Shown in pieces: positions 3,580 through 12,378 of a stretch of 64,000 nt of DNA. Origin of the DNA: Candidatus Saccharimonadales bacterium (GTDB lineage Bacteria > Patescibacteriota > Saccharimonadia > Saccharimonadales > SZUA-47). The notes under the pieces are model-generated. The model searched no databases, was not told the DNA's origin, and saw only the letters and a program-made list of their open reading frames with translations. The stretch spans positions 3,539 through 67,538 of the forward strand of contig JBGSRU010000001.1 of NCBI GenBank assembly GCA_041737385.1, given 5' to 3'. Positions within the stretch are counted from its first letter, which is position 1. Each line of letters opens with the position of its first letter. The translations under genes and the position numbers were made by a program.

Positions 3580-4299
3580 TTAAACTGGAGTCCTTGCCTG
3601 AGGGGGGTCGTAAGGAACCTCGTTCCGGACTGCAGCATAGTTGATGAAGGCTTGATCGCCCTCACCATAAGAATCTAACCTAATGGTATCAAGGTACAAA
3701 TTATCTGCTGCGATTGACTCCGGCTTTGCTCTATCAAGCACTAGCACCCCACCTGGCTCAAGTGTTCGTGGGGCCTCATCGCTCACAAACCTTGACTCAG
3801 CATCAGGATGTAGTGCGATAGAATACAGTGCGCCAACACTGCCATCTGGTATCGGAAGAACGGTTGCATCACCTATAAAATCGACGTTGTCTCTTACCTG
3901 AGTCGTATCCCAGCTACCGGGTACGGGCTCGGTTTTAAAATCAGCTCCTATAGGTCGCCAAGTGCGAGGTGACGGGGTATCGTCACGATGAGTAATAAAC
4001 TTACGCTCACCAGTTAGGCGGCGTTTATAGGCTGTTCTAATCGTTTCTGGTTGGTAGTGGTTCGAGGTTAGCAGACGCTTATTAATCCCGCCTAATTCTA
4101 AGAGGGAGTCTCTAGGCCTAGGACTGCTAGGCACCGCCCCTACCTCTATAAAAGGTCCTTGAGTGGCATCTATGAGTGTCTCAATAGATGGCCCAACTCT
4201 CATTTTTTCAAACAGCACTCGTGCGGATATTCGTCCAGCTTTAGTTCTGCGTGGCTTGGTTTCTTCTTGATGCTGTAGATGGTTTGGACTATTTGGCAT
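3580..4299 (-). CDS. class I SAM-dependent methyltransferase-like protein (degenerate motif I)
   Basis: C-terminal half reads like a Methyltransf_11 fold: FIGDATVLPIPDGSVGALYSIALH ... LEPGGVLVLD; the N-terminal half is unrecognised. Confidence 0.4.
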   Translation of the reverse strand: MPNSPNHLQHQEETKPRRTKAGRISARVLFEKMRVGPSIETLIDATQGPFIEVGAVPSSPRPRDSLLELGGINKRLLTSNHYQPETIRTAYKRRLTGERKFITHRDDTPSPRTWRPIGADFKTEPVPGSWDTTQVRDNVDFIGDATVLPIPDGSVGALYSIALHPDAESRFVSDEAPRTLEPGGVLVLDRAKPESIAADNLYLDTIRLDSYGEGDQAFINYAAVRNEVPYDPPQARTPV

Positions 4300-4427
4300 T
4301 TCTGTTTCTGACTAACATAAAATATATTAGCATAAAAATTGTAAAAAGTCAATATTTCGCGGGCTATAGAGTCAGATTTTAGAACTATCTGACCAATAAG
4401 GTCAGCTCCATGTCCCCTGACTTTCAT

Positions 4428-4859
4428 TCAGAGGACTAGCTGTAGCTCAGAAACAAGTACATCCATCGCTGTGCTGGTCATCGGTATATACCCCATGCCT
4501 CTAGACTCGTACACTACCCCTGCTAAGTCCAAGAGATGTCTCTCAAGCACCGAATCACCAGCTCTATCGACATTTAGATGGCCTATTCTACATATATCTT
4601 GTGTGCCGCCAGCTGCTAGTTCAATAGTGGTGGGCATACCACCTTCGTCTACAAAACCACTAAAGACCCTGATATTACGCATACTGCCCCATTCACCCCT
4701 AATTTCCCTAGTGTAGGGTCGTTCTTCATCATGATCTACTAAATCTGGATCAATTTCTTCTAAGCCAGGCTCTTGATTGGCTAATGACCTTAGCACAGTC
4801 AGCCTATGCATATTTTCAAAACTAGGTGTCCAGTCACTCATATAAAAAACACTATACAA
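4428..4859 (-). CDS. hypothetical protein
   Basis: 143-aa ORF, no motif recognised. Confidence 0.45.
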   Translation of the reverse strand: MYSVFYMSDWTPSFENMHRLTVLRSLANQEPGLEEIDPDLVDHDEERPYTREIRGEWGSMRNIRVFSGFVDEGGMPTTIELAAGGTQDICRIGHLNVDRAGDSVLERHLLDLAGVVYESRGMGYIPMTSTAMDVLVSELQLVL

Positions 4860-4884
4860 CTTTAGTCATATAGTGTCAATATAC

Positions 4885-4904
4885 TGGCGGGCCCGACCGG
4901 ATTT
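4885..4904 (-). repeat. exact 20-nt copy of the tRNA-Asp 3' end (T-loop/acceptor/CCA)
   Basis: tggcgggcccgaccggattt is identical to 5063-5082, 178 bp away in direct orientation. Confidence 0.85.
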
Positions 4905-5027
4905 CGCTTTGCTTGAACGTCAATAAATTTCTTACATGCTAAGAGGTAGCATGACAAAATTTTTGTCTGTAGACCCGACGCCGCTTTGCGGCTATGCCGG
5001 TTCTTAATCCGGATCGGGTTCGTTAAA

Positions 5028-5062
5028 ATAAAAAAACCACCATAAAGGTGATTTTCTTATTT
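5028..5062 (-). terminator. rho-independent terminator of tRNA-Asp
   Basis: Minus strand: aatcacc-tttat-ggtggtt hairpin followed by a U-run, directly after the tRNA CCA. Confidence 0.5.
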
Positions 5063-5139
5063 TGGCGGGCCCGACCGGATTTGAACCGGCGATCTCCTCC
5101 GTGACAGGGAGGCATGTTAGGCCACTACACCACGAGCCC
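5063..5139 (-). tRNA. tRNA-Asp (GTC)
   Basis: Hand-folded 77-nt cloverleaf: acceptor GGGCUCG/CGGGCCC, anticodon stem CCUCC/GGAGG, loop CUGUCAC, T-loop UUCAAAU, discriminator G, encoded CCA. Confidence 0.9.
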
Positions 5140-5519
5140 GCATTTTTGTTACCAAGGCGTAACAAAAATTTGTCACGTCTTGAAACTTCGATAATATTAC
5201 CATCTTAAGGAGTTAAAAGCAACAATTGAAACCAGATTCTCTGTAGCCAATCAGCATAAAGCAGGAAAACCGATGAAAAATCTAAAATAATGTCGAGTCA
5301 TTTTCGAGGCTTGGCAAAAATCTTTAAATAGTTACTATATTTTTTGCCCGACCAGAGGGAGTTCCGGAGAAACAATGTTATTTTTGATTTATCAATAGTT
5401 GTTATTCTTGCCCGCTGTTGCTTCTTTGCATACTTTCTAGTCAATACAAGAATGTATGTTAGGGCGTGGGACGAAGTAACCCACAATATTTGTGTAGCGA
5501 TGAAGGGCTACAAACTTCA

Positions 5520-6587
5520 CTACTCAGGCAATGATACATAAAGTCGATATGGCTGGCTATCTTTTCGATCATTCAAACTAGCTGCAAGGTCTTGAAGCCT
5601 GAAGATGATGTGCGCACCTCGTGCACCGCTTCCCTTCTTTTCTAGATTCTTTACGATCTCTAGTGCATAGCCGTTTTCGTACGGGATAACATTGATCCCT
5701 GAATATTGTCCCTCCGACAAACGAAGCAATGTATCGACTGTTTGTTGAGAAACATTACGATTAGTCGGATCTACTTCTCCAAAATCACCGCCAGTTTCTT
5801 TTGTTATTTCTTCATCAGAGTATTCTGCAACTATTTCACTAAACTCAGCTCCTGCTTCGAGTTTTGCAAGCGCTTGCTTAGCGCGGTTTTCCGTTGTCGC
5901 GTCTAGTGCTCGAGTAACTTTTTGCACTAACAATTCGTTAGACAGACTTCTCCTGAAATCGCTAATAGACCAGTTCCAATAGTTGCGGAGTACGTCTTCA
6001 AATATTTCCTCGCTACTTCCGAGTCGTTTTTGCTCTCTGGCAATCCGAATTTGCTCATCAATTTCTTCACTCGATACGGTAACGCCGTTTTCTTCAGCAA
6101 GTATTTTGGTATATGCAAAGTTCACGACATCATCGAGAGCGCGCTTTTTATAGCTTGCGAGCTGAGCCTGCCCAGCCTCTGTCTCAAAACTAAGCTGTTG
6201 TTGCGTTTCGTAATAGTGGATGTAATGCCGAAGTTCAAATAAATAATTCTCATATGCAACAAATGTATTCCCAGTGCGGGCGACTGGGAAAGGTAGGACT
6301 TTTGTCACTTGATACATGAAACCGCTTGAAGTTTGACGTCTGTAGAGCAAAAACACTGTAGTAGTAGCGAACACAAGCACTGAAGCAATAGCGAGAGATA
6401 TAGACAGTATGACAATACGATGTTTTGAGTGCTGAAGTGGATATATATATTTTCGAGCACCGGACAGAATCACCTCTCGGTGTTCGGCAACATTATCGTT
6501 CGTAATACGTGGGACAATGCCGTTTTCAGCTTGCTCTTTTTTTAAGCTGCGTTGTTCTCTAAGCGCTTGGATTTTTTTCTTTACCAC
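5520..6587 (-). CDS. membrane-anchored parvulin/SurA-like peptidyl-prolyl isomerase (PpiD/PrsA-like)
   Basis: N-terminal TM helix, long helical chaperone-like region, then a parvulin-like stretch AKLEAGAEFSEIVAEYSDEE..TGGDFGEV. Confidence 0.5.
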   Translation of the reverse strand: MVKKKIQALREQRSLKKEQAENGIVPRITNDNVAEHREVILSGARKYIYPLQHSKHRIVILSISLAIASVLVFATTTVFLLYRRQTSSGFMYQVTKVLPFPVARTGNTFVAYENYLFELRHYIHYYETQQQLSFETEAGQAQLASYKKRALDDVVNFAYTKILAEENGVTVSSEEIDEQIRIAREQKRLGSSEEIFEDVLRNYWNWSISDFRRSLSNELLVQKVTRALDATTENRAKQALAKLEAGAEFSEIVAEYSDEEITKETGGDFGEVDPTNRNVSQQTVDTLLRLSEGQYSGINVIPYENGYALEIVKNLEKKGSGARGAHIIFRLQDLAASLNDRKDSQPYRLYVSLPE

Positions 6588-7135
6588 TATGTTTCCTGTT
6601 CTTGTTGTTGCTGACTTTGCGGAGCTGAACTAGCGTTTGTTGCATATCCACGTGAACGCAATATGCCGAGTAGCTCGTGTTGTATATGTGCAGGTTTATG
6701 GACGTCATGAATACTTAGGTTGCCAACAAAAGTCTGCACTGTTATTGTACCAAAACCAAGCAACGTTTCTTGTATACCTTCCACTTCATAATTAACCATT
6801 TGTATCTGATTGAGTGCAAGGTCTATGACTTTTTTATTGAAAAACCCTTTTTGCGTGCTTTGGATAAACCGCTGATCAGTAACTATATAGACACTGAAAT
6901 ACCAATACACCCATGATGGGAATGCAACTAGTATTCCCAGTAAGAACCCTCCACCTATCCCGAAATAGAAGTAATTCAACTGCGCGTTAGGCAAAAAAGA
7001 TGGAATTGTACCGACAAGTACTGCAATCATAAAATAGATTAGACCTCGACGCATCACAACCGGATGCTTACGAAAGACGAATAACACTTCTTCGTCGTCG
7101 TACTGACCTCTAAATTGTTTGTTGTTTTTTGCCAT
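6587..7135 (-). CDS. membrane protein with bacterial PH-like (YdbS/YdbT-type) domain
   Basis: 182 aa, two TM helices followed by a beta-rich domain; overlaps the downstream gene by 1 nt; assignment is by general resemblance only. Confidence 0.35.
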   Translation of the reverse strand: MAKNNKQFRGQYDDEEVLFVFRKHPVVMRRGLIYFMIAVLVGTIPSFLPNAQLNYFYFGIGGGFLLGILVAFPSWVYWYFSVYIVTDQRFIQSTQKGFFNKKVIDLALNQIQMVNYEVEGIQETLLGFGTITVQTFVGNLSIHDVHKPAHIQHELLGILRSRGYATNASSAPQSQQQQEQET

Positions 7136-7169
7136 ATGCTCTATTTTACGCTAATGGTTTCATAAGTTC

Positions 7170-7194
7170 TAATTGGTGACCTGGGAAGGAGTCG
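7170..7194 (-). repeat. exact 25-nt copy of the tRNA-Arg 3' end plus 5 flanking nt
   Basis: taattggtgacctgggaaggagtcg is identical to 7362-7386, 192 bp away in direct orientation. Confidence 0.85.
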
Positions 7195-7330
7195 CTCACG
7201 CTAGCGCGAGCCCGAAAATACATGACTTTAAAACAAGTTTTCATCAGTATGTTTCCTTGCAAACTGTCACTGGCAGTTTTCACCTTCAACCTATAAAGGT
7301 TTTGACCGACGTCTTCCCGCATCACCTTAT

Positions 7331-7362
7331 AAAAATACCACCTTCAGGGGGTGGCGTTTTTT
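7331..7362. terminator. bidirectional terminator-like hairpin after tRNA-Arg
   Basis: ccacc-ttcaggg-ggtgg stem-loop with T-runs on both strands. Confidence 0.5.
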
Positions 7363-7365
7363 AAT

Positions 7366-7441
7366 TGGTGACCTGGGAAGGAGTCGAACCTTCAACCTTT
7401 TCCTTAGGACGGAACTGCTCTATCCATTGAGCTACCAGGCC
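7366..7441 (-). tRNA. tRNA-Arg (CCT)
   Basis: Hand-folded 76-nt cloverleaf: acceptor GGCCUGG/CCAGGUC, D arm GCUC-AAUGGAUA-GAGC, anticodon loop GUCCUAA, T arm GAAGG-UUCGACU-CCUUC, encoded CCA. Confidence 0.85.
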
Positions 7442-7477
7442 AAAAGCGCCACAGTGTGACGCCCATGATAGAAGCTG

Positions 7478-7936
7478 TTAGTTGTGGTTTTCGTAAACGT
7501 GCATAAACTCTGACTTATCGTAGTCAAACAGTTCGTCAGCATTGAAGAAACGTGCTACTTCAGTCATGCCATTCTCAGTACTATCAGAAGCATGTACAAG
7601 ATTTCTACCCGTGTCCATCGCCATGTCACCGCGAATCGTTCCTGCTTCTGCTTGTCGTGGATTAGTAGCTCCTAAAATAGTACGTATTGAGCTAATACAC
7701 TCCTTGCCCTCAAGCGCCATTGCAATGACGGGAGAACTTTTCATGAAATCTTCAACTCCTTTATAAAATGGTTTATCAGCAATATGTGCATAGTGTGCTT
7801 GCAGCATTGCGCTGTCTAAGCTCATCATTTTCATACCGATAATTTTTAAGCCTTTTTTTTCAAAACGTGTAACAACTTCGCCCGTTAGGCCTCGTTGGAC
7901 TGCGTCTGGTTTTAAAATTATAAGTGTTCGTTCCAT
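7478..7936 (-). CDS. ndk: nucleoside diphosphate kinase
   Basis: MERTLIILKPDAVQRGL..., catalytic-His region NLVHASDS; 152 aa. Confidence 0.9.
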   Translation of the reverse strand: MERTLIILKPDAVQRGLTGEVVTRFEKKGLKIIGMKMMSLDSAMLQAHYAHIADKPFYKGVEDFMKSSPVIAMALEGKECISSIRTILGATNPRQAEAGTIRGDMAMDTGRNLVHASDSTENGMTEVARFFNADELFDYDKSEFMHVYENHN

Positions 7937-8022
7937 GTGTGATAATTCCTATTTATTACTCTCAAGTATAGCAAACTAACAGATATACGAGAAGTGTGGA
8001 GAACGTCGCACAATAAAGTAAT

Positions 8023-8955
8023 ATGCGTTACAATGGTCTTATGCTTTTCTCAAAAACAAAAACTGACTTTCTAGAGTATCTAGAGATAGAGCAAGGACGC
8101 TCACAAAAAACTATCCAGAACTACGATCACTATCTTATAAGACTCGTCGATTTTGCCGGAGACATTACCATAGCTGATATTGATCCTGAGCTTATCAGAA
8201 AGTGGCGACTATGGCTCAATAGGCTTGGTACAAACACTTCTGATGAGCTCCAAAAGAATACACAGAACTATCACCTTATTGCACTCAGAAGCTTCCTAAA
8301 GTTTTGTGCTAAGCGCGATATAACCGCAATGCCAGCCGACAAGATCGAGCTTGCGCGTGCAACGCGAAAACAAGTGACGTTTCTCAACCAAGATGAGCTA
8401 GAACGGCTTTTTACATCGCCAAATCTAGATACGGTTCAAGGTGTGCGTGATAGAGCCATTTTAGAGCTTTTATTTTCAAGTGGGCTTCGTGTATCCGAAC
8501 TCGTGGGCTTAAATATCGGTGACATCAACCTGAAAAGAAAAGAATTTATGGTGCGTGGTAAAGGTCAAAAGGATCGCCCAATCTTTATCAGCGACGCGGC
8601 GGCATGGTGGGTGCAACAATATACGGACAAACGCACAGACAACAGCACCCCACTATTCATCCGCTACAGCGGAGCCAAGAAAGTATCGGTGAGTGGGAAT
8701 TATAATCGGCTTACCTCTCGTAGCGTGCAGCGGCTCGTTGCTCGTCATGCACTACTAGCAGGAATAACGAAACATGTCAGTCCTCATACTTTGCGGCATT
8801 CGTTCGCAACTGATCTACTCATGAACGGTGCGGATCTGCGCTCAGTCCAAGCGATGCTGGGACACAGCAATATTTCAACAACACAGATATATACACACGT
8901 GACTGATCCTCATCTCAAAGCAGTCCATCAGAAATTCCACCGCTCAACCGAGTAA
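8023..8955 (+). CDS. tyrosine recombinase, XerC/XerD family
   Basis: N-terminal SAM-like domain; C-terminal HTLRHSFATDLLMNGADLRSVQAMLGHSNISTTQIYTHV with the R..H-R-H..Y catalytic pattern. Confidence 0.85.
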   Translation: MRYNGLMLFSKTKTDFLEYLEIEQGRSQKTIQNYDHYLIRLVDFAGDITIADIDPELIRKWRLWLNRLGTNTSDELQKNTQNYHLIALRSFLKFCAKRDITAMPADKIELARATRKQVTFLNQDELERLFTSPNLDTVQGVRDRAILELLFSSGLRVSELVGLNIGDINLKRKEFMVRGKGQKDRPIFISDAAAWWVQQYTDKRTDNSTPLFIRYSGAKKVSVSGNYNRLTSRSVQRLVARHALLAGITKHVSPHTLRHSFATDLLMNGADLRSVQAMLGHSNISTTQIYTHVTDPHLKAVHQKFHRSTE

Positions 8956-8966
8956 GATTCGTAACC

Positions 8967-10040
8967 TTAAGGATAGACGCAGCTGTCAATAACGCGCGGT
9001 GCCGCAGGAATACTTGCATCGACTGCAAGTAGTTTACAAACACCGTCAAAAGCTTGAAATACTGCTTCAGGTGGACTATTAACTCCGGCAACCGGTATCG
9101 CTACTCTTAGGCGCCTCACAACATCTGTTGCTTTAGCAGTTACATCAATACTTGTCTGTGCTTGTCTAAACTCTACCGTCTCTATGCCACCTGTCGGCGT
9201 AATTTCGGTTGCCGATATCACAAGCCGTGCGCTGTCGTATACTGACCTAAATCTACCAGCGTAAGCATTCGATGAGAATCCTGTAATAGTGATGTCACAA
9301 GGTAGTTCTTGCCCTGCAACACATGACACGCCAATCACTTTACCCGGAGAAGATGCTGGGCTGTAAGCATAAGTAGTCGCTGATCCACCTTGACATGGTG
9401 CGAGATACAGGTAATCCGTTGAGTTTATAAGTGCATCACGGCTCAGCGTCGAAGTATTCGTAATGTCGATGCGTATGAGCGGCACAACGCCTGATCGTGA
9501 TGCAGGAAAGTTCCCTGCATCAGGGCCACAGTTAGGTAGGCTATCAATAGCGTTGTTACCCTGCTCATTCGCCCAACGAAAGCGCATAGTAGAAAAAGGG
9601 TTTCCACTATCTGTTTTTAGTTCAGTCACGCGTGATTCTGAAGTGTTTAAGCTGTAGACGAGTTCTGTTGGCGTTTTGTCGTAAAGCGCGCATGTGTAAG
9701 CTATATTACCATCTGAACTTAAGGAGCCAGCGTCTATTGCTGGATTTGGTTGTCCGTTTGACAATGGATTCTCAACATCACAATCTGTTTTTTCGGCTGG
9801 TAAATTAGGGTTAGCCTGCAACGCGCCGTAAATATCATTGATACCTGATTCTGCTGCATACAAAGCCTGTCGAGACAGTTGCCTGTCTAATGTTTGTCGC
9901 TGTTCTCGCTGCATAATTCTAGTGAAGCCAATAGTGATAAGCGATAGTATGATCATAATAAGCGAAGCAACAATAATCGCAACAAAGCCGGCTTCAGGAC
10001 GAGTATGGTTTTTGGTGTTCTTTGTATTCATAAGCATCAT
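8967..10040 (-). CDS. PilX-like T4P minor component (PilX_N-type hydrophobic N-terminus, no Glu+5)
   Basis: N-terminus RPEAGFVAIIVASLIMIILSLITIGF...RQALYAAESG; last gene of the minor-pilin block. Confidence 0.55.
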   Translation of the reverse strand: MMLMNTKNTKNHTRPEAGFVAIIVASLIMIILSLITIGFTRIMQREQRQTLDRQLSRQALYAAESGINDIYGALQANPNLPAEKTDCDVENPLSNGQPNPAIDAGSLSSDGNIAYTCALYDKTPTELVYSLNTSESRVTELKTDSGNPFSTMRFRWANEQGNNAIDSLPNCGPDAGNFPASRSGVVPLIRIDITNTSTLSRDALINSTDYLYLAPCQGGSATTYAYSPASSPGKVIGVSCVAGQELPCDITITGFSSNAYAGRFRSVYDSARLVISATEITPTGGIETVEFRQAQTSIDVTAKATDVVRRLRVAIPVAGVNSPPEAVFQAFDGVCKLLAVDASIPAAPRVIDSCVYP

Positions 10041-10717
10041 TATAACCTTTTTTGTACGGTGACTAAATATTTTGTTGTTGCGCAGAATTCCGTCCCTACA
10101 AAACTACCCTCGCAAGTTAGCTCAGTTGGAGTTCCAGAAGGCCTTGGACTAAGCAAATCATTGTCGCCGTAGGCAACACCAATAGATACTTGATAGGTCT
10201 GGGTTGTCGCATTGATTAATGATATTTGAAGCTGATAGAGCCGCATATTTTCTGGGAGCAAATCTTTACCGTCACTGCTTGGTCTATCTGCGTTCAAATC
10301 AGCAGATGTTCCACAGCCAGCAAGCTGATCAACCCACAAAGCATGTTTCTTGTGTTTTGCTTCAGGAATTGGGCTTGGGTTACTCTTTACCTGCCTATCT
10401 ATCGCGTATGTATACCGCTTTTGTCCAATGCAGAAATACGCGACGTCATCAGATCCCGAAGGCACTTGTGGTCCCGCAACCTGCGGTACACCAATCTGGA
10501 TAGTCTGATTCGTGAAGCGTATAGCTTCGGCTATTTCATCAACGACTGTTCGCGCAACTTCACGAGTTTTATTCTGTGTGACGCTACGGTAGTACATCTT
10601 TGTAATCTGCAGAACACCGGCGAGACAGATCATCAGCACAAGCGAGAATATAGTCGTTGAAATCATCAACTCTATAATAGTAAAACCTTTTTTATTTGTT
10701 TTCTGAAAACTCCTCAT
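10040..10717 (-). CDS. prepilin-type minor pilin (PilW-like position)
   Basis: Class III signal KKG|FTIIELMISTTIFSLVL with Glu+5. Confidence 0.75.
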   Translation of the reverse strand: MRSFQKTNKKGFTIIELMISTTIFSLVLMICLAGVLQITKMYYRSVTQNKTREVARTVVDEIAEAIRFTNQTIQIGVPQVAGPQVPSGSDDVAYFCIGQKRYTYAIDRQVKSNPSPIPEAKHKKHALWVDQLAGCGTSADLNADRPSSDGKDLLPENMRLYQLQISLINATTQTYQVSIGVAYGDNDLLSPRPSGTPTELTCEGSFVGTEFCATTKYLVTVQKRL

Positions 10718-10719
10718 AA

Positions 10720-12378
10720 TTAGTTTCCTTCAATTTCAATAATATAATAAGCATTTGAATCGAAAACTCCATTCCTGAACCAATCATTCCAGGTCCCAGC
10801 CCCTACCCAGTTCATTGCTGCACAATCTTCACCCGGATTACCTAAATTATAATCATTAGGCTCTTCTACGCCAGGGGTAGTACTATCATCATACCAATTT
10901 GTATAATTTACCGATTCACCAGTCACCCACCTCCAAACACCTTCAGTGTCTTTATCATTTAACCCTAACCATATTCTATTTCCAGCTGCTACTGAGTTTG
11001 AAATAAAGCTATTTTCTTGAGTAGAACTGATAGTGACTAAATGGCCACCACTGCCAATAGCTGCAGAATAAGCCTGGTCACAACTCACAGGTGACGAAGA
11101 AAGATAGTATCTATTATTGTTTGGCGGATTTGCAATCTCTGTTACTCCTGCAGGTAAACTACCTGGAGCAGCGGTACTATACTCTATAACGTATCTATTT
11201 GTATCACTAGCTCCTTGATCATCCCATCTTCCATTGCTAGCAGTAGGCCAGTTCATTAACGCATAATTTTGAGCTCCTAACCAGTTATCTGGCTGACCAG
11301 GATTCCAGTTGGTATAGTTATATGGTTCACCCGTTTCCCACAGCCATTCACCTTCTCTGTTTTGGTCAGTTAGTCCAATCCAAGCTGTTTGAGAAAACTT
11401 AGTAGACACATAGCTATTCTCAGCAGGAGACTCGAAAGTTACTAAATGCCCACCTAAAGCTTCAGCATTTGCTTTCGCTTGAGTCCACGTGACTAACTCA
11501 TCTACAAAATAATAAGAACTGCCGTTAGGTCCAATTCCTAGATACGTACTGTTAGGAATAGTTGGGGCAGTAGTAGCAAATGTTTGCTCAGCGCTAGATA
11601 CTTCCTCTCCAGTTCCTGAATTTCTAACTATCAATGTGTATCTATAGGTCTGGCCGGGTATGAGTGAATCGATAGTTCTAGATAGATTGTTTGATGAGAG
11701 GGGTATGGTTGTAACGACACCGGTACTATCTCTTGTGAGTAGTAGCTGACGCGTAGTAGCTACACCCAATATTGATCCAGTCATTGAGGCAGTAGTAACG
11801 TTTCCAGAAATAGTAATAGATCCTATAGAAAGTGGCACAGGAGTTGGTGGGGGTGTTGGTGGTGCTACGACTAAAGGCACTGCCGAGAAGGCATTGCTGC
11901 CAGCTGGATAGACACGGTAGCCTGTTGTGAGTTCTTTCAGTGGCCCGCCACCGAGTGGATCCCACCTTGCACGAATAGTGAATAGATAATCAGCAGATTT
12001 TGTAACGGACATCGAATACCTTCCATTGACTCCATGGTTACATTCAGCGGGATAATTCTGTGCATCATTTAGCTCGTCTTCAGTGAGTGGAGAAGGAAAC
12101 TCTAAATATTGGGCGTTATCGTTTCTAAAACAAAATGAACTCCCGGCCGGCAGAGCTACTAAAGGATTCGTGGTTAGCGTACTTAGCGCACGTAGTTGCT
12201 CTAATTGTGACTCAGCGACTTTCAGCGCCTCGGTACGTTCCTGTGCGTCTTGACCTATAGCAACACTCCTATTCGCAATACCGAAAGCTGCACCCAGAAC
12301 AAGCCCAATAACAGACATGGCAAGTAGTACTTCAATAATAGTATCACCACGCTGAGACATACGGCGGTAGCTCATCAT
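10720..12378 (-). CDS. modular PilV-like minor pilin with FN3/Ig-like spacer and two C-type lectin domains
   Basis: QRG|DTIIEVLLAMSVIGLVLG pilin N-terminus; PPTPPPTP linker; two CTLD signatures (WIGLTDQNREGEWLWETG..NWNPGQPDN..WDD and IWLGLNDKDTEGVWRWVTG..EEPNDY..GEDCAAMN..WND). Confidence 0.8.
   Translation of the reverse strand: MMSYRRMSQRGDTIIEVLLAMSVIGLVLGAAFGIANRSVAIGQDAQERTEALKVAESQLEQLRALSTLTTNPLVALPAGSSFCFRNDNAQYLEFPSPLTEDELNDAQNYPAECNHGVNGRYSMSVTKSADYLFTIRARWDPLGGGPLKELTTGYRVYPAGSNAFSAVPLVVAPPTPPPTPVPLSIGSITISGNVTTASMTGSILGVATTRQLLLTRDSTGVVTTIPLSSNNLSRTIDSLIPGQTYRYTLIVRNSGTGEEVSSAEQTFATTAPTIPNSTYLGIGPNGSSYYFVDELVTWTQAKANAEALGGHLVTFESPAENSYVSTKFSQTAWIGLTDQNREGEWLWETGEPYNYTNWNPGQPDNWLGAQNYALMNWPTASNGRWDDQGASDTNRYVIEYSTAAPGSLPAGVTEIANPPNNNRYYLSSSPVSCDQAYSAAIGSGGHLVTISSTQENSFISNSVAAGNRIWLGLNDKDTEGVWRWVTGESVNYTNWYDDSTTPGVEEPNDYNLGNPGEDCAAMNWVGAGTWNDWFRNGVFDSNAYYIIEIEGN

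Follow-up and report, generated by a model that had tools for sequence, protein, structure and literature searches.

Within the 64,000-nucleotide stretch of Candidatus Saccharimonadales DNA analysed here (contig JBGSRU010000001.1; hereafter the window), two tRNA genes, tRNA-Arg(CCT) and tRNA-Asp(GTC), are each followed by a small non-coding unit that ends in an exact copy of the tRNA 3' end. We propose that these units are miniature, non-autonomous and protein-less integrative cassettes whose recombination site is the T loop of tRNA genes in a Saccharimonadia-like lineage of the Patescibacteria (candidate phyla radiation, CPR), a reading that we advance tentatively and to which we give somewhat less than an even chance. 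Insertion and deletion of whole units, unit edges inside the T loop, tandem stacking, shared modules and inversions would, as far as sequence comparison can tell, together be what site-specific recombination at the T arm is expected to leave behind. No description of such units was found in the searchable literature, and searches on Saccharibacteria tRNA repeats and on rtT/tyrT yielded nothing directly relevant.

The comparison covers one syntenic region, in which the tRNA species present are Arg, Asp, Thr, Gly and Val. Eleven syntenic loci (L162-L178) were gathered via homologues of the bPH protein, a membrane protein with a bacterial PH domain whose gene lies between tRNA-Arg and a PpiC-type isomerase gene, together with exact look-ups. 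Two further syntenic loci (L001 and L002) came from a genome scan, which brings the sample to 13 relatives, or 14 genomes with the window. In L161, a Logan assembly of the same organism as the window, the units are identical.

The tRNA-Arg(CCT) gene (7366-7441, minus strand, as are all parts of both units) is intact and encodes its CCA end (ARAGORN; 60.8 bits with Rfam tRNA). The initial annotation described this gene as followed by an exact 25-nt copy of its own 3' end with 167 bp between, and the repeat comparison confirms it. Positions 7362-7386 (direct repeat 1, DR1, on the attL-like side) run from T-loop C56 through CCA plus ATTA, and recur at 7170-7194 (DR2, on the attR-like side). The two are identical over 25 nt (21 nt of tRNA and ATTA), lie at a spacing of 192 and enclose positions 7195-7361; with one mismatch the repeat extends to 28 nt. 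When up to three mismatches are allowed, the 19-nt 3' end of tRNA-Arg occurs at only two sites in the 64 kb, against a chance expectation of 0.01, and none of 100 shuffles contained two matches. The earlier argument against a chance pattern stands.

The DNA between the repeats opens, as had been stated, with a terminator and continues with several hairpins (minimum free energy -65.2 kcal/mol; z = -4.1 against shuffles). The terminator (AAAAAACGCCACC-CCCTGAA-GGTGGTATTTTT; 7331-7362, stem 7337-7355, followed by a T run) is intrinsic and borne by the cassette, and it is absent from the empty sites of L172 and L163 described below. It is followed by an inverted repeat (IR; 7296-7326, GGTGATGCGGGAAGACGTCGGTCAAAACCTT), a decayed 31-nt inverted copy of the tRNA from the variable loop to CC, found by local alignment and folding; its similarity to the reverse-complemented 3' part of the tRNA was equalled in 12 of 3000 shuffles. 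The 14-mer at 7313-7326, which the initial annotation had reported to be complementary to the tRNA end at 12 of 14 positions, is the outer part of this arm, and the count is correct for the tRNA strand (11 Watson-Crick pairs and one G-U). A TAT turn and a direct copy of the variable loop and 5' T-stem strand come next (AGGTTGAAGGT; 7282-7295); the stretch at 7282-7292 is identical to the tRNA over 11 nt, a value equalled in 5 of 2000 and 25 of 3000 shuffles. The remainder of the interior is module Xa (7195-7281), 87 nt with three hairpins (covariance model, RNAalifold), which occupies the T-loop position of the partial tRNA copy. To the 3' side of DR2 lies the original flank, the upstream region of the bPH gene.

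The tRNA-Asp(GTC) gene (5063-5139; ARAGORN, Rfam), likewise intact, carries a second cassette of the same architecture, in agreement with the earlier description. Its last 20 nt (5063-5082) form DR1 and are copied exactly, from T-loop A57 through CCA, at 4885-4904 (DR2), at a spacing of 178. Behind the tRNA, folding predicts a cassette-borne terminator with a 16-bp stem and then a U run (5025-5062). It is followed by an IR with an inverted T arm and 3' acceptor strand (CCCGATCCGGATTAAGAACCGGC core; 4996-5024), equalled in 0 of 2000 shuffles, and by a small central hairpin (ATAGCCGCAAAGCGGC) with a direct 5' T-stem fragment (GTCGGGTC; 4972-4995; folding and alignment). Module Y (4905-4971), 67 nt long, comprises a long hairpin with a CCUCU loop and a small hairpin, and alignments place it in the T-loop position of the partial tRNA-Asp copy. 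The folding z score of the Asp unit is -7.1.

Beyond DR2 of the Asp unit lies the original tRNA-Asp flank with a terminator hairpin (4848-4884), homologous to the sequence found directly 3' of the tRNA in L001. Part of it (4848-4879) contains a sigma-70 consensus matching at 11 of 12 positions (TTGACA-17-TATAGT) as well as a 13-bp hairpin followed by a T run. Because this hairpin is kept in L001 through a compensatory change, the segment may be the tRNA terminator, the promoter of the next gene, or both.

The inverted arms of both units are predicted to be able to pair either with the real tRNA end, which would lengthen the terminator stem, or with the downstream copy, the two options that the initial annotation had raised for the 14-mer. 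In the second case, inverted arm and copy would close a rod from which the module would stand out as a side branch. Simpler origins of the Arg unit were rejected. A simple tandem duplication does not fit, since the two copies are followed by unrelated sequences and the DNA between them is no copy of the tRNA. Its left part was also considered as the 5' half of a decayed pseudo-tRNA; it showed no significant similarity to the pseudo-tRNAs of L162 and L163 and resembles instead the reverse complement of the 3' part of the tRNA. No credible open reading frame (ORF) was found inside the Arg unit, and a 63-aa ORF on the plus strand (7173-7364) was dismissed as spurious, the other Arg units being unrelated in sequence there.

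Empty sites in relatives, which had been suggested as a check, are present for both tRNAs (L172 and L163 for Arg; L001, L162 and L168 for Asp). In L172, whose bPH protein is 82-83% identical to that of the window, and in L163, tRNA-Arg is joined directly to ATTAGAACTTAT.AAAC.TTAGCGTAAAATAGA, a sequence that in the window stands after the copy; the flank there reads ATTAGAACTTATTAAAACGTTAGCGTAAAATAGA or a close variant and is homologous to the post-copy flank of the window. In L001, L162 and L168 the downstream Asp unit is missing. The identical tRNA-Asp of L001 runs straight into the hairpin ACACCATA...TATGGTGT, the homologue of which follows the copy in the window, and the Asp flank of L162 equals the flank after a decayed copy in L163. 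Since the empty sites join the tRNA to the post-copy flank, the Arg segment (7170-7361 plus the shared repeat) is a discrete 192-bp insertion/deletion unit. Most relatives are without the Arg unit, and from the distribution of empty sites at least two gain or loss events per locus follow.

The unit is bounded within the T loop on one side and at CCA, or just past it, on the other. The cassette supplies a fresh T-loop-to-CCA segment and a fresh terminator, so that the tRNA gene stays whole, while the displaced 3' end with its old flank becomes the downstream copy. In all eight downstream units (8/8) the stretch identical to the tRNA opens at T-loop positions 56-59 and extends to CCA. Apart from the window, tRNA-Asp bears the pattern in 6 of the 10 other genomes in which this gene was seen, once as a short variant; at the sampled loci of the 14 genomes, tRNA-Thr, tRNA-Gly and tRNA-Val carry no units.

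The Asp units of Y type from the window, L175, L163 and L173 align over their full length and are recovered by a covariance model at E < 1e-38. The same model recovers L165 weakly; L165 and L177 represent a sister subtype of the Asp unit. Two Asp units stand in tandem in each of L173 and L177, and L176 has a 46-nt short form. At tRNA-Arg, a type B unit of 138-145 nt is found in L002, L177 and L178. It ends in 18-19 nt of the resident tRNA-Arg allele, which is different from that of the window; the copies are exact in L002 and L178 and carry 2 mismatches in L177. The tRNA-Arg alleles of the window, L002 and L178 thus differ, yet each copy matches its own tRNA. A segment 3' of tRNA-Arg in L173 (4859-4960) is type-B-like, with a terminator, TGGT, a hairpin, an inverted T-arm fragment (ATCGAACCCCC) and a direct GGTTCG; it has no terminal 3'-end copy and is apparently a truncated unit.

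Mirror-image units also occur on the 5' side of tRNA genes (L162 and L163 at tRNA-Arg; L162 and L178 at tRNA-Asp). They consist of a pseudo 5' part up to T54, an X module, the 3' half of the T loop and about 35-40 nt, after which the real tRNA follows. The most extended example lies upstream of the real tRNA-Arg in L162 (4250-4846), where 3.3 tandem units of 180 nt are repeated with 94% matches, each composed of the pseudo 5' two-thirds of tRNA-Arg with a 9-nt anticodon loop (ACACCTCAA) and Xa; beyond the array stands a truncated older tRNA-Arg allele that is broken in the T loop. The pseudo-tRNA-Arg of L162 (~4790-4841) and that of L163 (~4685-4741) share an anticodon loop that is 2 nt longer, (A/G)CACCTCAA, while their bodies match their own, differing resident alleles, which suggests either concerted evolution with the neighbour or selection on the loop.

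Modules cross between the two tRNA species. Xa (covariance hits at E <= 1e-23 in the window, in L162 three times and in L178) sits at tRNA-Arg in the window and L162 and at tRNA-Asp in L178; the L162-Arg and L178-Asp sequences are 87% identical over 85 nt. Xb occurs at tRNA-Arg in L163 and at tRNA-Asp in L162, with 73% identity, and both Xa and Xb are therefore found in partial copies of either tRNA. Searched over 0.49 Mb, the X-module covariance model matched only within these tRNA-linked units. Each module has hairpins at or close to its two ends, lacks module-specific terminal inverted repeats, and shows no duplicated target where it joins the T loop.

The tRNA-Arg(CCT) gene itself is inverted relative to the NDK (nucleoside diphosphate kinase) and bPH genes in 5 of the 13 relatives (L001 6471-6546; L162 4228-4302; L168 4843-4917; L171 4742-4817; L175 4861-4936; compare 7366-7441 in the window). 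The flanks differ between the two orientations, so this is no simple flip of the tRNA alone. The tRNA-Asp gene is inverted in L178.

Folding back of a replicating strand could generate part of this layout without any mobile element. Tandem-inversion duplications are known from Salmonella, and the order within our units, from DR1 through terminator, IR and short turn to the direct copy, is exactly that of such a duplication, with hairpin turns at both junctions and with an unbroken palindrome that starts at the tRNA CCA, crosses the terminator and continues into the inverted copy. Replication would have snapped back at the terminator hairpin, producing the inverted copy, and again at the AACC..GGTT turn, producing the second direct copy, by a template-switch mechanism that is documented in general (PMC8794818). 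We nevertheless regard this origin as very unlikely: the terminator, Xa and Y are absent from the empty sites and hence were not copied from local sequence, the same modules are present at different tRNAs in different genomes, and the inverted copy has decayed much further than the exact direct copy, which speaks against both having arisen in one event.

The units are better conserved than the genes around them. With terminator and 3' copy set aside, pairs of genomes agree at 60-79% of positions in their Asp units and at 59-72% of nucleotides in the flanking protein genes; at four-fold degenerate sites the window and nine relatives share 17-39% identity, which means that synonymous sites are saturated. 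On these alignments the units would not be neutral debris. The units of the window and L173 are the most alike (0.79), and their hosts are among the least alike (0.64). In the Y alignment (four sequences, as in each alignment used for compensatory changes) pairing holds for 94% of cells, and double compensatory changes occur in 12 of the 38 pairs; none of 500 shuffles attained the observed values, and slid partners were 35-46% paired. RNAalifold gave 34 pairs for Xa, 8 of them compensatory.

These data bear on the proposal of the initial annotation that the Arg segment is the scar of a decayed integrative element, which proved the least supported of its readings. Such a scar would have arisen when the internal deletion of a kilobase-scale prophage, plasmid or island left its inert att-proximal ends behind. 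Duplicated tRNA 3' ends in direct orientation are the textbook attL/attR footprint, the region 3' of tRNA-Asp is gene-variable among relatives, L177 has a 2.3-kb coding insert within its unit array, and copies are decaying in L163 (3 mismatches), L165, L173 and L177. Independent deletions, however, would not yield the same 138-192-bp architecture with four module families at two tRNAs, nor would debris be expected to align over its whole length among genomes with saturated neutral sites, to keep its hairpins paired through double substitutions, or to retain Xa at 87% identity in Arg and Asp contexts of different genomes. We thus give the scar only a slim chance. One larger insert, that of L177, contains a Y1 transposase gene and is nested in the array; it is no ordinary prophage boundary.

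The conserved folding is better suited to a further alternative, which we consider unlikely but which deserves serious weight, namely that the unit is the gene of a tRNA-linked structured small RNA, read through from the tRNA promoter or transcribed from an unrecognised one. Its T-arm/acceptor/CCA end could be trimmed by tRNA-processing enzymes, as in E. coli rtT or the sponges derived from 3' external transcribed spacers (3'-ETS), and it would be inherited vertically with occasional loss by recombination between the 3'-end copies. The hairpins are supported by covariation, and conservation exceeds that of the neighbouring genes in spite of saturated synonymous sites. The consensus fold is better by 8.7 kcal/mol on the tRNA-sense strand (-32.8 vs -24.1 kcal/mol antisense), where G-U pairs correspond to C-A mismatches on the opposite strand. 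A terminator follows the copy in the Asp unit of the window and in L175, L173 and L002. The pseudo-tRNA-Arg of L162 and L163 share the altered anticodon loop (A/G)CACCUCAA despite differing bodies. The apical loop of Y (UACCUCUUA at 4930-4953 in the window, UACCUCCUA in L175), with its CCUCU/CCUCC, resembles the anti-Shine-Dalgarno 3' end of 16S rRNA.

The strand opposite this loop reads AAGAGG-N5-ATG and opens a 19-codon ORF (~4953-5012, plus strand) that is not conserved in L175. This small antisense ORF with its Shine-Dalgarno-like sequence was considered as the cause of the Y hairpin and rejected, because L175 lacks the start codon and the changes in the stem are compensatory rather than codon-wise.

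Several observations speak against an RNA gene. A strong intrinsic terminator separates the tRNA from the structured part; a sigma-70-like promoter was found inside neither unit of the window; apart from the tRNAs, no Rfam family, RtT included, matched positions 4000-9000 of the window at E <= 10 or five relatives at E <= 0.1; and the Arg unit is dispensable, as most relatives are without it. The T-loop breakpoints and the exchange of modules between Arg and Asp would also be left unexplained. A precedent is E. coli tyrT, in which 178-bp units, repeated 3.14 times and each ending in the last 19 nt of tRNA-Tyr, give rise to rtT RNA. Our units, at 192 and 178 nt, downstream of a tRNA and ending in 21 and 20 nt of it, with tandem forms in some relatives, share this architecture and nothing beyond it: they have no Rfam RtT match and, unlike rtT, they possess a terminator after the tRNA, an inverted copy, modules common to two tRNAs, and 5'-side forms. 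The readings are not all exclusive, as a mobile cassette could carry an RNA.

If the units are cassettes, a recombinase must be supplied. In the window the gene order is that of a Xer-family tyrosine recombinase (8023-8955, plus strand), NDK, tRNA-Arg, bPH, the PpiC-type isomerase and tRNA-Asp. The Xer-family protein (Pfam Phage_integrase, 3e-45; NCBIfam hits to XerC, XerD and XerA) scores below the XerC and XerD equivalog cut-offs and above that of archaeal XerA. By Pfam and by phmmer against all ORFs of the window it is the sole tyrosine recombinase there, and its gene lies 0.6 kb from tRNA-Arg and about 3 kb from tRNA-Asp. It is kept in position in 11 of the 13 relatives' loci whether cassettes are present or not; at the L162 locus no recombinase gene was called at this position, and the L172 contig is too short to show it. 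The Xer-family gene is the only recombinase candidate in view, and no more than a candidate because it is present with or without units.

The second gene of interest is found in L177, where two Asp-type units of 208 nt (8388-8595 and 10923-11130; 89% identical) stand around the 2.3-kb insert, which breaks the 3'-end copy of the first unit. The insert contains two genes (8600-9214 and 9366-10715), coding for an IS200-like Y1 transposase (Y1_Tnp, Pfam 1e-9, with a weak hit to REP-associated transposases) and a 449-aa ORF without a family match. We considered whether this transposase borders units as REP-associated ones border REPs; this was rejected, as the insert interrupts a unit instead.

The same gene is one of the grounds for yet another reading, in which Xa, Xb and Y are IS200/IS605-type elements (PATE- or REPIN-like) that are moved as single strands by a Y1 (HUH) enzyme into T-arm hairpins and survive only in partial or duplicate tRNA copies. 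Consistent with such hairpin transposons are the hairpins near the module ends, the lack of own terminal inverted repeats and of a target duplication at the junctions, the folded tRNA-sense strand, which by GC skew would be the lagging-strand template, and the Y1_Tnp (IS200-like) gene, seen only in L177, where it lies within the Asp-unit array. The window contains no Y1 transposase, no module was found outside T loops in the ~0.49 Mb searched, the insertion points vary by family (54/55 to 58/59), and the L177 insert offers no clean border with the unit that it interrupts. Direct and inverted tRNA copies and the new terminator also find no explanation here, and we judge the chance of this origin to be small.

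We return to T-loop cassettes, which would be gained and lost via site-specific recombination of the tyrosine-integrase type with the crossover in the T loop. Because the units encode nothing, the enzyme must act in trans, and it might belong to an unseen helper element or be the Xer-family enzyme 0.6 kb away. IR and direct copy would pair into a rod that rebuilds the duplex T-arm-to-CCA site, with the module bulging at the T loop. As the tRNA-sense strand folds best and the arms rebuild a duplex site, the substrate may even be a folded single strand, like CTX-phage attP or integron attC; GC skew would make the strand so folded the template of lagging-strand synthesis.

Integrases are documented to cross over in the T loop, for example that of mycobacteriophage Ms6 (PMC1762012), and integrating elements are known to leave partial tRNA genes (PMC9897764). 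In the attL/attR of such elements (Ms6 in tRNA-Ala, PMC1762012; PMC9897764) the repeat runs from the T loop to the 3' end, as it does in our units. Common to both are also the rebuilt tRNA, the displaced 3' end with its flank downstream, the empty sites and tandem stacking. As expected of this footprint, the repeat has its left edge within a tRNA loop closed by a symmetric stem in 8/8 downstream units. These elements, however, carry an integrase next to att and extend over kilobases, whereas the units measure 138-192 bp and contain no gene; unlike them, the units have an inverted target copy and a module that splits the T-arm half-sites, and no free or autonomous form was found. The lack of recombination genes is shared with the cis-mobilizable elements (CIMEs) of streptococci (PMC5704250), which have att-like bounds at a tRNA-type site and a presumed helper. 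CIMEs, though, are kilobase-scale derivatives of integrative and conjugative elements or of integrative and mobilizable elements, with identifiable helpers; the units, at ~0.15-0.19 kb, are 10-100 times smaller, have no recognisable parent and possess a folded architecture.

Folded single-strand sites are in use in two well-known systems, namely attP(+) of CTX phage, used by XerCD, and integron attC, used by IntI. Similar to these, our units have inverted target copies ~100 nt apart whose stem is predicted to recreate a duplex, leaving a branch unpaired where the crossover would take place; of the two strands one folds better, structure is kept over sequence, and a gene of the Xer/IntI family is nearby. 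The target, however, would be the T arm and not dif or attI, and there is no phage or cassette ORF. The Xer-family gene looks housekeeping and is present irrespective of units. Integrative mobile elements exploiting Xer (IMEX) would be expected to show dif-like borders; the unit borders are tRNA 3' segments and are not dif-like.

The initial annotation also considered a miniature inverted-repeat transposable element (MITE)-like element that targets tRNA 3' ends, and this of its proposals came closest. Small size, lack of coding capacity, hairpins and presence/absence polymorphism agree with MITEs, REPINs and PATEs, as does the Y1 transposase in one related array. The anchor, however, proved to be the T loop. 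MITEs have terminal inverted repeats of their own and a fixed short duplication, whereas the arms of the units copy the resident tRNA, and differ between Arg and Asp. Moreover, there are no dispersed copies in the window, and the 18-25-nt duplication is anchored in the T loop.

A number of points weigh against the cassettes that we propose. An autonomous element with these modules was found neither in the 14 genomes sampled nor in IMG/VR or GenBank phages: exact-match scans of viral contigs in IMG/VR gave no match to the tRNA 3' ends, the 29-nt Y core or the Xa 5' hairpin, and blastn with both unit interiors gave none among GenBank phages. BLAST and covariance models detected no further copies in the 64-kb window. 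No unit contains a recombinase, and only the conserved Xer-family gene is present in the window. A circle of ~180-190 bp is barely large enough to serve as a double-stranded substrate for recombination. Textbook attP sites have their core half-sites directly on either side of the crossover, while here the T-stem 5' half and the T-loop 3' half are 67-87 nt apart, and classical attP sites do not have the inverted tRNA copy of the units. The pattern of presence and absence could be due to recurrent loss via the direct repeats and not to recurrent gain, template switching can produce compensatory changes in hairpins without selection (PMC8794818), and the sample is one syntenic region from 13 relatives with five tRNA species.

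Going further, and with a probability that we regard as rather low, Saccharimonadia may have an undescribed T-arm recombination system in which protein-less, structured cassettes of ~90-190 nt (Xa, Xb, Y and type B) enter the T loops of whole or fragmentary tRNA genes and shuffle between them as folded single strands, with a Xer-family or Y1 recombinase acting in trans. This integron- or CTX-like system would rebuild the tRNA, flip its orientation and replace alleles, and it would possibly deliver small RNAs with anti-Shine-Dalgarno-like loops.

The G+C content of the window is 37-48%. The top matches to the window's NDK are metagenome-assembled genomes labelled Candidatus Saccharibacteria or Patescibacteria; in a metagenome scan with the NDK protein, the matches listed included only distant relatives without the tRNAs. 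The genes 3' of tRNA-Asp vary among relatives (positions 3580-4859 of the window compared with L001, L162, L163 and L175), and because these downstream genes differ, the 3' side of tRNA-Asp is a hotspot of gene turnover, beyond the small units. In the window this segment contains two ORFs, of 143 and 239 aa, without a significant family match. Away from the tRNA genes, a 552-aa protein (10720-12378, minus strand), which bears a prepilin-type methylation motif at its N terminus and contains two C-type lectin domains (Pfam 5e-29), is encoded in a cluster of pilin-like genes (PilX_N, N_methyl) and is possibly a host-attachment pilin of an epibiotic bacterium.

Integrative elements classically settle at tRNA genes, but to our knowledge the occupants described so far are kilobase-scale and bring their own integrase. 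Compared with all non-autonomous integrative elements known to us, the units are smaller by an order of magnitude; they are also conserved in structure and modular across tRNA species. A tiny integrative element of a new type seems to fit them better than chance or a dead scar does. Should they be mobile, they would mark out how little DNA T-loop-directed recombination needs as a substrate in the ultra-small CPR bacteria, whose biology is poorly understood, and would explain the local tRNA inversions, the allele replacement and the pseudo-tRNA arrays in these genomes. If they are RNAs, they would constitute a new tRNA-linked RNA family. Either way, annotation is affected in practice: partial tRNA copies and pseudo-tRNAs beside real genes can distort tRNA counts and misdirect tools that call prophage boundaries.

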